DNA of 64,000 bases from an uncultured archaeon (GTDB lineage Archaea; Asgardarchaeota; Lokiarchaeia; Sigyniarchaeales; SOKP01), in contig CAYLZE010000005.1 in assembly GCA_964388035.1 (NCBI GenBank), forward strand, positions 35,742-99,741, written 5' to 3'. Below, one piece after another: positions 7,045-10,835 of this stretch. Numbering within the stretch: the first letter of the stretch is position 1; each line of letters begins with the position of its first letter. The notes below the pieces were generated by a model, which did no database searches, was not told the DNA's origin, and saw only the letters and a list, made by a program, of their open reading frames with translations. The position numbers and the translations under genes were made by a program.

Positions 7045-8254
7045 ATGGCTGAAGAAGAAAGCTTTTTAAGTGCAAAAGCATTAGTGGTTGACAACGGTAC
7101 AGGAATCTCTAAAAACGGATTTGCTGGTGAGGACCAACCCCGTTCCGTGTTTCCAACTTTAATCGGGTACCCCAAATATGAAAGTATAATGACTGATGTC
7201 GAGCATTATACGAGAGAATACTATATCGGGGAAGAAGCAATGCAACTCAAGGGTGTATTGAAATTAATGTTCCCCGTAGAACACGGAATCATAGAAGATT
7301 GGACTGCCATGGAAAAAATATGGCACTACACCTTTTATACGGATTTGAGAATTGATCCCAGCGAACATCCCGTTCTCTTAACCGAAGCCCCCTTAAATCC
7401 ACGACCAAACAGAGAGAAAATGGCAGAAATCATGTTCGAAACTTTCAACGTGCCCGCGCTTTATGTTGCCATGCAAGCAGTTCTTTCCCTTTACGCGTCT
7501 GGTAGAACCACCGGATGTGTTATTGATATTGGCGACGGAGTGTCTCACGTTGTACCTATTTTTGAAGGTTTTGCGTTGAGCCATGCAATTCAGAGAATTG
7601 ATTTAGCCGGCAGAGATATTACCACTTATCTCCAACGTCTTTTACGACAAAAAGGTCATTCCTTTACGACTTCTGCGGAAAAAGAAATTGTTCGAGATAT
7701 CAAGGAAAAACTCTGCTACGTGGCCATCGATCCTGAAAAAGAAATGATGCTCTCCAAAAAAGTGGCGGGCATGGAAAAGAGCTACATGCTTCCTGACGGT
7801 GAAACCATTAATGTAGGTGTCGAACGATTTTTAGCTCCTGAATGCTTCTTTAATCCTTCCGTCATTGGAAAGGAATTGGAACCATTAGACGATGTCGTCG
7901 TAGGAGCAATTTCCGAGTGCGATGTTGACTTGAGAAGAGATTTATACAGCAACATTGTACTCTCTGGTGGATCTACCATGTTCCCCGGAATAAAGGAACG
8001 TTTGACTAAAGAAATAAAAGAACAGATCCCCGAATCAGTAGATGTAAAAATAATCGCACCTCCCGAAAGAATGTATTCCGTTTGGATCGGCGGCTCAATC
8101 TTGTCGTCTCTTAAAACCTTCCACCGAATGTGGGTCACTAGACGCGAAACCGAAAGAGATCAAAGAATCTCTCGGCGCGAGTACAAAGAAATGGGCCCAC
8201 AAGTAAAGAGAATCGAAAGAGATTCGATTTCGCTTAATTCATCGCTGCTTTTAA
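7045..8254 (+). CDS. Lokiactin (Asgard actin); predicted spliced CDS join(7045..8148,8182..8206,8238..8254), 381 aa. The unspliced frame runs to 8286 (413 aa)
   Basis: Actin signatures [44 protein letters not shown]; removing two insertions restores ...[20 protein letters not shown], matching eukaryotic [21 protein letters not shown]. Confidence 0.95.
8149..8181 (+). other. Candidate archaeal BHB/BHL-type mRNA intron 1 in Lokiactin (33 nt, phase 0)
   Basis: Central helix CGCG 8143-8146 / CGCG 8176-8179; bulge AA^A; inner stems CCGA/UCGG and GAGAU/AUCUC; 3' AG^U; splicing gives CGC GAA UAC (R-E-Y). Confidence 0.75.
8207..8237 (+). other. Candidate archaeal BHB/BHL-type mRNA intron 2 in Lokiactin (31 nt, frameshifting)
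   Basis: Central helix AAGU 8201-8204 / GCUU 8232-8235; bulge AA^A closed by G8208-C8231; inner stem GAAUCGAA/UUCGAUUU; 3' AA^U; splicing gives GUA AUU CAU CGC UGC UUU UAA (VIHRCF*). Confidence 0.8.
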
Positions 8255-8280
8255 GCACGATGCGGGCCCTTCAAATCGCG
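8240..8280 (+). promoter_or_regulatory. Structured stop-codon/3' UTR element of Lokiactin mRNA
   Basis: Hairpin CAUCG(C)UGCUU-UU-AAGCACGAUG over the true stop; GGGCCC 8264-8269 complements 8193-8198; UCGCG 8276-8280 complements CGCGA. Confidence 0.55.
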
Positions 8281-8286
8281 AATTAA

Positions 8287-8315: not shown

Positions 8316-8852
8316 TATTTTTATATTTTACCCATAAATTAATTGATCAAATCAAGTTCAGTCTATTTTTCAATAGCAATTAAGAATAAATTATTTTATG
8401 TACGAAAATTTCTAAAAAAAATATTATTATTTAGATTGAGGATAGTTTTTTTGTTATCAAAAAAAGGTTTTTTGTGCTAATAATCTATGAAAAAATTCAA
8501 TAAGAAGCTTGCTTTTGTCCTTTTTTTTTATAAAAAATGGTTATTGTAGAGCGCTTGAATAAGTATCAATTAATCTTAACACTTTAGGATTTAATATTTT
8601 TATTATGAAAATTGAATTCTTGAGGTACATTCGCATAATATTCTCAATTTATGAAGTTTAAAATTCAAAATAAGAAGTATATGGTGTCTTTTAGCAAGAT
8701 CAAGTTCAAGGGCACATATAGTATTACCCAAAAGAAAAATTCCCAATGAAGTACCAAATTACTATTCCGATCCTAAAAAAAGTCGGAAAGAAGTCAAAAA
8801 AATAGGAGAAAAAAAAAAGGAGAATGACGGAACCATTTTTTCTGTTAGCAGT

Positions 8853-9137
8853 GAAGAGCAGGGCAAAGAACTTCCCAAGCAGAAGGAAAAGAACTTAAAA
8901 TTCCTGACGAAAGAACAGGGCAAAGAACTTCTCAAGCAGAAGGAGAAAAACTTAAAATTCCTAACGGAAGAGCAGGGCAAAGAACTTCTCAAGCAGAAAA
9001 GGGAGATTTTAAAATTCCTAACGGAAGAGCAGGGCAAAGAACTTCTCAGGCAGAAGAGGGAGATTTTAAAATTCTTGACGGAAGAGCAGGGCAAAGAACT
9101 TCTCAAGCAGAAAAGGGAGATTTTAAAATTCTTGACG
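8853..9137 (+). repeat. 57-bp coding tandem repeat x5 plus a partial 6th (19-aa unit EEQGKELLKQKREILKFLT)
   Basis: Units gaagagcagggcaaagaacttctcaagcagaaaagggagattttaaaattc(c/t)t(a/g)acg directly visible. Confidence 0.92.
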
Positions 9138-10835
9138 GAAGAGCAAGGAAAGGAACCCATCGAGCAGAAAAAGGAAGTAAGAAAAAAAGAGTTTGATTTT
9201 CCTATGAAAGAGCAAGTAGAAAAACGAATGAAAGAGAAAAAAGCATCCATTTTACCAGCTAAAGAAAGCGAGATCAAAAGACAAAACAATTTGGATATTT
9301 TTGAAACGGAAAATAGGAAGATTATACTTAAAGAAAAAGCTCGAGAGCTAGAAAACTCAGTAGGGATTGGCAAAGACTTGAAAGAACGAGATCGGTTAAA
9401 AAGAGAGCAAAATTTAGATGAGCTTTCAAAAGGAAAGATTAATGAAAAAGATATAAAACAAAATAAAAAAGAAGTAATTAAAAACCACAAAGAAGGATAT
9501 TATTATGAAAAAGAGTCGATCCTAAAAGTAAAAGAGAATCCATCTAAGCTTAAACCTAAAGAGCAGATAGAGATTCAACATAATCAAAAAAATACACTTG
9601 AATTTAATACTAAAGAGAAAGGACAGGAAAAGCAAAAGAAGGTGATTAAAGAGCAAGAAAAAGAAGAGACCGAAAATAATGCAATTAAATTATTTGAGGA
9701 TTTACGAAAGGAACTCGGCATTTTAAAGGGAGAGCCTAAAACAATATCTGATCCCAATTTAAGTAAAAGTTTGGGACGGGCTCCCAGCTATGTAATGACG
9801 AAAAAGGCACAAATTAAAGAAAATCCTAAATTTCAACTTTCCTTAAAGGAACTATCAGGATTTCAAGAACACTTGAATTTGAAGTATGGAAAGTTAGCCA
9901 GTCGATGTTCTGAGATAATCGAAAAGTATAAAGTAGCTAATCCAGACTTAAAAGAATATGCTCATGAGCAACATGAGGTTAGTAAGCCCCATTTTTTTTC
10001 TAAAGAAAACATGTTATCTAATACACCAGAAGGGAATAATGCATGCTATTTTTACGGATTTCTCCATGCAGATGGTTATAGAAAAGGTAGGTACGTAATA
10101 GGCAGTAGGATTCATCCGCATGATAAATTAGTTTTAGAAAAAATATGTGACGCGATTGGTATTGATCGAGAGAAAATAAAAGTTAGTGAAAACGTAGCGC
10201 AGTTAGAGTTCAAGTGTAAACCAATGCACGCCGACTTAAAAGAGGTTAAGGAGTATTGCATTCCTAACTTTTTAAGACCAAATAGAAAGAAAGTGCTGCG
10301 TTGGCTTCATGGTTTCTATGATGGAGATGGTACACAAGGTCGGACAAATTTTGGATCAGCACATAAAGAAATCTTGATTGATGTTAAGAAGTATTTCGGA
10401 ATAGAAAATGAAGTTTTAAAAACTCTGGAGAAATATACTTATGTCGATAAAGCTGGAAAAACACATGTTAGAAATGAATATTGGACATTAAGCATTGGTC
10501 CAAAGATATTTAATGAAATGCTGCTTTCTAATCCTTCTGGTGGATTACCTAGAAAATATTCTTTCAAGCAGGAGAAAGATGAATCATATAAAAGGTTAAA
10601 AAGAAATGTTGTTATTTTTGAGAAAAGACTCGGAATGCCACTTCAAGAAGCCCTATATAAATATCGGGTTAGCCAATTTAGGGAAATGTTAGGATCGAGG
10701 TCTACATCATTGCATAGGTTAATTACAGAACGAAAGTTAGAACTACCCCCTAAATCATATTGGAAGGATAAACCTACAATTTGGCCAAACAATGAAGTTT
10801 ATAAAGATTTAAAGGATAAACCATTACATGAATAA
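9075..10835 (+). CDS. Free-standing double-motif LAGLIDADG endonuclease-like protein with long Lys/Glu-rich N-terminus (frame open from 8655; true start probably upstream of 9075)
   Basis: Motifs YFYGFLHADG and WLHGFYDGDG about 85 aa apart. Confidence 0.8.
   Translation: MTEEQGKELLKQKREILKFLTEEQGKEPIEQKKEVRKKEFDFPMKEQVEKRMKEKKASILPAKESEIKRQNNLDIFETENRKIILKEKARELENSVGIGKDLKERDRLKREQNLDELSKGKINEKDIKQNKKEVIKNHKEGYYYEKESILKVKENPSKLKPKEQIEIQHNQKNTLEFNTKEKGQEKQKKVIKEQEKEETENNAIKLFEDLRKELGILKGEPKTISDPNLSKSLGRAPSYVMTKKAQIKENPKFQLSLKELSGFQEHLNLKYGKLASRCSEIIEKYKVANPDLKEYAHEQHEVSKPHFFSKENMLSNTPEGNNACYFYGFLHADGYRKGRYVIGSRIHPHDKLVLEKICDAIGIDREKIKVSENVAQLEFKCKPMHADLKEVKEYCIPNFLRPNRKKVLRWLHGFYDGDGTQGRTNFGSAHKEILIDVKKYFGIENEVLKTLEKYTYVDKAGKTHVRNEYWTLSIGPKIFNEMLLSNPSGGLPRKYSFKQEKDESYKRLKRNVVIFEKRLGMPLQEALYKYRVSQFREMLGSRSTSLHRLITERKLELPPKSYWKDKPTIWPNNEVYKDLKDKPLHE

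Follow-up and report, generated by a model that had tools for sequence, protein, structure and literature searches.

The window, that is, the whole 64,000-nt stretch of DNA that was analyzed, carries a Lokiactin gene that is interrupted near its 3' end by two short inserts lying on either side of a micro-exon; downstream follows an open reading frame for a putative free-standing LAGLIDADG endonuclease (Table 1). Orthologues of this Lokiactin are 95 to 99% identical in most family genomes, all of them Promethearchaeota (Loki-type) MAGs, and in a cultured relative Lokiactin is filament-forming and the most highly expressed actin (PMC12993045). No second Lokiactin was found in the genome (97% complete, 7% contamination), which encodes three other actin-fold paralogues with 29 to 38% identity to Lokiactin. 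Compared with a genome of the same genus, the gene has a pN of 0.016 and a pS of 0.78; it is under strong purifying selection and is not decaying. As observations that would refute its reading, the initial annotation had named an intact second copy accompanied by decay of this one, to be checked through copy number and dN/dS, or conserved translation of the long unspliced tail, and neither is seen here.

Table 1. Features of the Lokiactin locus, in window positions
Feature	Position	Strand	Details
Lokiactin exon 1, codons 1-368	7045-8148	+	PF00022, E 1.7e-127
Exon-1 strand of the intron-1 distal outer helix	8129-8136	+	Pairs with 8194-8201
Intron 1 (predicted)	8149-8181	+	Relaxed BHB of 33 nt, in frame; 8143-8146 pairs with 8176-8179
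Micro-exon	8182-8206	+	25 nt; bears 8201-8204 (intron-2 central helix) and hexamer 8193-8198
Intron 2 (predicted)	8207-8237	+	31 nt, frameshifting, relaxed BHB (HBh'); homologue in G013
Last exon	8238-8254	+	Rest of Ile codon, HRCF, stop
Last-exon/3' UTR hairpin (predicted)	8240-8262	+	One arm of a three-way junction round intron 2
3' UTR hexamer	8264-8269	+	Complementary to 8193-8198, with which it closes intron 2 in a distal outer helix
Putative free-standing LAGLIDADG homing-type endonuclease gene	9075-10835	+	586 aa; 820 nt downstream of actin

A relaxed BHB motif near the actin stop codon

Recomputation of the geometry bore out every coordinate that the initial annotation had given for the 31-nt intron 2, its helix strands, and its cuts. 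The central helix has 4/4 pairs between the exon strand 8201-8204 and 8232-8235, and the predicted cuts, after 8206 and 8237, each fall behind the second base of a 3-nt bulge. The inner stem (h', 8208-8217/8223-8231) comprises nine pairs, with A8209 bulged and a 5-nt loop at 8218-8222. Both the central helix with its bulge cuts and the inner helix are as in a BHB motif, whereas the exon-exon helix (h) of the canonical hBHBh' form is missing, with 0/4 adjacent pairs right outside the bulges. Because no h helix adjoins the bulges, the motif is the relaxed HBh' form and not the full hBHBh'.

Deletion of the 31 nt gives the ending GPQVIHRCF-stop, which is the ending of more than 100 relatives, in agreement with the earlier claim that removal of the intron is needed for the HRCF end; removal of 8149-8181 as well gives a 381-aa protein. 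The unspliced frame, also as had been claimed, continues into a 26-aa tail that ends at 8286 (ORF 7045-8286). Four junction registers (starts 8204 to 8207), of which the BHB register is one, yield an identical protein, so the junction is not fixed by the protein alone. A spliceosomal intron was considered and rejected: in the BHB register, intron 2 begins with AG and terminates with AA, and although the ends admit another reading in the earliest of the four registers, GU-AG occurs in none of them.

When the insert was shuffled, 0/20,000 sequences reached a 4/4 helix together with an equal stem, and two reached 3/4; the genome background for an intron-2-like structure was 2 in 50,000 positions. 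The folding z score was about -2.3 to -2.4, and the stem is moderately stable (about -4 kcal/mol when constrained, with a pairing probability of 0.3 to 0.5 in context). A search of the genome for further copies of intron 2 found none, and its exact pattern had no match in the JGI metagenomes. In an RNA run and read sets, no contig of the four runs bridged 8142-8229; the RNA contigs were short pieces from relatives, with neither an exon joint nor coverage at these positions.

The intron-2 site is occupied in 2/151 genomes of the order, namely, this one and a genome of another genus (G013, contig JAUWRB010000028), where the insert is likewise 31 nt long, lies at the same base, and is identical at 22/31 positions (71%). 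All nine stem pairs are kept in G013, with two double changes and one single change (two compensatory pairs). Across the alignment of both carriers, 25/26 cells are paired, and the G013 central helix has an A-G mismatch; as there are only two carriers, this covariation is not significant alone. An assembly error does not explain the insert, since a homologous one occupies the same base in an independent MAG. Between the two genomes, the last exon has four differences, all of them silent in the spliced frame, while 4/7 residues change in the read-through frame, and the 20-residue spliced ending is invariant in 103/110 tails read. Synonymous sites are saturated among the actin genes.

The genome encodes two EndA paralogues (alpha and beta) and RtcB. 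The catalytic EndA alpha has a Tyr-His-Lys triad and a K-P-R loop aligned to K44-P45-R46 of Aeropyrum pernix, whose enzyme is the closest to it among solved structures; a loop of this type confers relaxed (broad) EndA specificity (PMC3241643, PMC12397907). To judge from these sequences, the host EndA should be able to cut relaxed motifs, and a ligase is present. Furthermore, tRNA-Phe, -Ala, -Val, and -Pro of the host have introns of 29 to 30 nt at non-canonical sites, which implies that the cell must already cut such motifs. ARAGORN and Rfam together gave only about 20 tRNA genes, most of them with introns; further multi-intron tRNAs were probably missed.

Given the geometry, the restored C terminus, a structure preserved in another genus, and the enzymes that the genome encodes, we are highly confident that intron 2 is a genuine ORF-less, tRNA-type BHB intron, real and spliced. 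The single Lokiactin, the pN/pS contrast, the silent-only differences in the last exon, and the presence of EndA and RtcB all support splicing, and normal 381-aa Lokiactin very probably needs it. In muscle actin, the C-terminal segment makes inter-subunit contacts (PMC2628472), by analogy with which unspliced Lokiactin is probably defective. If this is true, a prokaryote closely related to eukaryotes would depend on mRNA splicing for its cytoskeleton, and the output of Lokiactin would depend passively on EndA/RtcB activity, a dependence that does not in itself amount to regulation.

Intron 1, the surrounding mRNA helices, and other inserts

The intron-1 site carries 30- to 33-nt hairpins in seven distinct actin genes (30 to 32 nt in the other six). 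Between them, these inserts use each of the three frames for read-through. Changes at the wobble base of the exon Arg codon go together with changes in the helix strand of the intron, and two of the genes regain their protein in the BHB register alone. A loose scan of JGI data, consisting mostly of chance matches (at least 120 listed), included four actin matches, all with intron 1. A third intron site was observed at actin codon 88 (L118, G022:C140), with a 30-nt insert, two stops, and a 4/4 central helix. Introns 1 (8151-8160) and 2 (8214-8223) have the 10-mer CGAAAGAGAT in common, which was reached in 20/20,000 shuffles and possibly reflects local copying between them; intron 2 of G013 differs at this 10-mer.

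Pairing of the micro-exon with the 3' UTR forms a distal outer helix that is present in both intron-2 carriers, one pair being C-G here and U-A in G013. A helix of this kind with at most one G-U was found in 0/95 intronless genes, in a test devised after the fold had been seen. The micro-exon/3' UTR helix and the 8240-8262 hairpin are predicted to close a three-way junction round intron 2. At intron 1, a strong exon-exon duplex (-14.6 kcal/mol or below) occurs in 5/6 carriers versus 4/86 intronless contexts (rank test, P value of 0.002, kin not being independent), and in the carriers it arises from silent codon choices. The surrounding mRNA appears to be adapted to the introns. The outer helices of introns 1 and 2 compete for the same micro-exon bases, which suggests an ordered removal of the two. 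Exon skipping across both introns was rejected by sequence inspection, as the cross helices do not pair.

Genome wide, a loose scan combining BHB motifs with ORF merging gave no excess over ±1-nt controls, and a strict scan gave 6 candidates versus 2 and 0 in the controls. A homology search of 110,000 sampled codons yielded several BHB mRNA inserts; we estimate, but have not counted, tens of such inserts in the genome. Two paralogous small-GTPase-like genes of this genome (G000:C10 near 71610 and G000:C47 near 4846) contain a near-identical in-frame 33-nt hairpin that is absent from the homologue in G001, a genome of the same genus whose actin is intronless. On G000:C32, a 30-nt stop-containing insert near 9825-9855 was found both by homology and by the strict scan, and its two opposite-strand calls, about 30 nt apart, may be one element. 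Contigs G000:C191, C197, C200, and C204 are short, have scan hits that look GC-rich and dissimilar from the others, and are probably part of the 7% contamination.

The putative nuclease gene and its homologues

The nuclease ORF has a charged, repetitive N terminus and a double-motif nuclease domain from about 10040, with both acidic motif residues intact. The frame is open from near 8655 (start codon putative), and five to six tandem charged repeats of ~20 residues precede the domain. The ORF itself had no sequence match in Pfam or the PDB, and a profile search matched LAGLIDADG enzymes weakly; LAGLIDADG_3 (PF14528) was matched above cut-off by four of six homologues tested, and, in a fold comparison with a structure model (pLDDT 81), I-DmoI and the endonucleases of inteins were matched with E values of 8e-6 to 1e-4. 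Since direct sequence searches missed it, the identification relies on homologues and predicted fold, by which the ORF is a LAGLIDADG homing-type nuclease and a putative cutter.

This is the sole member of its family found in the 5.5-Mb genome, and it adjoins actin. Homologues are present in at least 71 family genomes. In G013, the closest homologue among the matches listed (57% identical) is represented by its final 37 codons, which lie about 110 nt past the actin stop, on the opposite strand, and the contig ends before the nuclease domain. Both intron-2 carriers, therefore, have the same nuclease subfamily beside actin (2/2, with the C-terminal 37 codons visible in G013), a link that the initial annotation had not drawn. 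In G001, a stop-ridden nuclease remnant follows actin, and the UTR is the most similar to that of this genome, a state in keeping with fixation, decay of the nuclease, and exact loss of the intron. Across the 36 family genomes with located actin, no other genome had a homologue on the actin contig among the matches listed, and the intron-1 carriers G008 and G065 likewise had no match to the nuclease among these. Searches of the actin flanks span only 0.2 to 2 kb, and their count of 185 takes in loci matched by chance, so locations were taken from whole-genome positions.

The association was also analyzed at the best 19 nuclease-homologue loci of related genomes, chosen without regard to introns and comprising five target genes identified from sequence motifs. 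At 13 of the 19, a 30- to 33-nt BHB insert interrupts the conserved gene alongside (RNA polymerase A', fwdA, EF-1alpha, alpha-mannosidase, or aldolase), and 10/14 inserts have a single protein-restoring register, with a 4/4 helix. By the same search, there were 14 BHB introns in 7,522 codons beside homologues versus 2 in 77,875 blind codons of three genomes, an enrichment of about 70-fold, or about 26-fold when each target gene is counted once. These introns lie 190 to 830 nt from the nuclease domain. The other mRNA introns of the present genome have no neighbor of this nuclease family.

The individual inserts beside nuclease homologues are found in RNA polymerase A' at codon 42 (L305), in fwdA at codons 195 and 327 (L307, L308, and L320, with L308 broken at the first site), in alpha-mannosidase at codon 17 (L310, L311, L317, L318, and L321), and in aldolase at codon 194 (L313). 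In EF-1alpha, 32- to 33-nt BHB inserts lie at codon 20, in the GTP-binding loop, beside a LAGLIDADG gene (L309, L314, L315, and L316). A 31-nt insert at a different, earlier EF-1alpha site was seen in G008 (L173), where no nuclease neighbor was found.

We propose that the actin pre-mRNA folds into the 4-bp helix and the intron stem within the three-way junction closed by the micro-exon/3' UTR helix, that a two-subunit EndA would cut after 8206 and 8237 and RtcB would join the exons, and that the normal 381-aa actin would arise from the spliced message only. In the DNA, intron 2 would be tolerated as a passenger and would split the site targeted by the adjoining LAGLIDADG endonuclease. This nuclease would cut intronless actin alleles near the 3' end, and repair from a carrier would copy the gene end, intron, UTR, and nuclease together, with the carrier becoming immune (collaborative homing). 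The patchy distribution of intron 2 would be accounted for by its following the neighboring homing-type nuclease, for which the target can be placed, as a guess, within a few bases.

We think it likely, from comparative evidence at the sequence level, that intron 2 spread with this nuclease by collaborative homing, in which cleavage is a prediction. That intron 2 is real and spliced and that it spread with this nuclease, both together, is on balance probable. We lean slightly toward the broader proposal that Loki-type Asgard mRNA micro-introns are a general class that would invade essential genes (actin, EF-1alpha, and RNA polymerase A') through LAGLIDADG collaborative homing, with the host evolving silent-codon and UTR helices that here may order their removal.

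Competing explanations and related systems

A real, obligatorily spliced BHB intron may instead have arrived without the nuclease, through local DNA copying or through reverse splicing into some plentiful mRNA and then reverse transcription, with the nuclease homing on the actin end independently. Such an origin would be in keeping with the 10-mer common to introns 1 and 2, with the lack of such a neighbor at most introns of the genome, and with conserved genes attracting elements of either kind; in addition, no general mobile-element route was found in a preprint on the tRNA introns of Asgard archaea (10.64898/2026.10.13.758758). However, the same nuclease subfamily lies by actin in both intron-2 carriers, and introns are strongly enriched close to the domains of its homologues. 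We regard arrival without the nuclease as possible but unlikely.

In HAC1/XBP1, a small frameshifting mRNA intron is cut by the stress-regulated IRE1 and joined by tRNA ligase, changing the C terminus in a conserved switch. Intron 2 resembles it in its size, its frameshift, its effect on the C terminus, and a predicted tRNA-ligase type of joining, but no dedicated nuclease or conserved switch is seen here. That intron retention is a regulated switch of this kind, or yields a long-tailed actin isoform, is improbable. The intron is frameshifting and moderately stable, the competition of the two outer helices for the micro-exon could order or modulate splicing, and a regulatory role has been proposed, though not demonstrated, for the cbf5 intron (PMC2738675). 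Against this, the read-through tail is 26 aa here versus 17 aa in G013, with 4/7 residues differing while the spliced frame is unchanged; the intron-1 inserts use all three frames; and intron 2 is absent from 149/151 genomes. When the read-through tail was compared with known proteins, none carrying a tail like it was found. Of the two interpretations in the initial annotation, obligatory splicing for normal Lokiactin is thus supported by the comparative evidence, and the on/off or four-isoform switch is not, the tail being unconserved and the intron confined to two genomes.

Even less probable is an insert that is not spliced at all, with a long-tailed actin being tolerated, the frame being recoded in translation, or the gene decaying. 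The break lies five codons from the end, and the three actin-fold paralogues are also present; yet conservation of the last exon follows the spliced frame, pS greatly exceeds pN, and nearly all of the at least 120 protein homologues listed have a C terminus of normal length. In addition, the stop-bearing inserts early in EF-1alpha and rpoA' of relatives could not survive unspliced. An assembly artefact or a chance hairpin, for which the 7% contamination of the MAG and the lack of a read set bridging 8142-8229 might be adduced, can hardly be entertained in view of the 71% identical insert at the same base of an independent MAG and the negative chance tests.

A spliced intron that spread with the adjoining nuclease, the reading that we prefer, has partial counterparts among known systems. 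The crenarchaeal cbf5 pre-mRNA contains an ORF-less BHB intron of 16 to 44 nt, mostly of relaxed motif and with patchy gain and loss (PMC2738675), which was described in 2020 as the sole archaeal mRNA intron (PMC7714728). Like intron 2, it is short, ORF-less, mostly of relaxed BHB form, and with a cut (predicted for intron 2) after the second bulge base, in hosts with a two-subunit EndA and with patchy gain and loss. The two differ in phylum and gene, and Lokiactin has two introns round a 25-nt micro-exon. Unlike cbf5, intron 2 also has a distant outer helix with the 3' UTR, has many counterparts within its genome and its family, and is linked to a nuclease; its RNA excision is predicted.

In the collaborative (trans) homing of phages, a free-standing endonuclease and a group I intron without an ORF share the same site (PMC3984707). 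The likeness lies in a free-standing nuclease beside a gene that has an ORF-less intron at its near end, and in their co-occurrence across genomes. Here, by contrast, the intron is a 31-nt BHB element, predicted to be protein-spliced, on an archaeal chromosome, the nuclease is of the LAGLIDADG type, and both cleavage and immunity are predicted. Membership in a phage-type pair with a self-splicing group I intron was rejected, as a ribozyme core would not fit into a hairpin of 31 nt. BHB introns of archaeal rRNA encode LAGLIDADG endonucleases of the I-DmoI type (PMC2738675, PMC4496867); motif and nuclease fold are the same, but in Lokiactin the nuclease is not encoded within the intron, which interrupts an mRNA.

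The preprint on non-canonical tRNA introns in Asgard archaea describes repeated gains and a two-subunit EndA, concerns tRNA genes only, and leaves the arrival route open (10.64898/2026.10.13.758758). The motif is that of intron 2, whose size class is also that of the tRNA introns in this host; the preprint text does not treat mRNA, cbf5, homing, or actin. In the literature searched, which was mostly non-subscription, no published report of mRNA introns in Asgard archaea was found, and beyond cbf5 no archaeal protein-coding gene with a spliced intron was found. The October 2026 preprint regards the arrival of short ORF-less introns in archaea as an open problem; Lokiactin, if the proposal is true, adds a testable vehicle for their spread in the form of an adjoining nuclease gene. 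As to how the 31 bases of intron 2 first arose, the 10-mer shared with intron 1 hints at local copying. At BHB micro-introns such as these, gene callers give wrong C termini or split genes in Asgard genomes.
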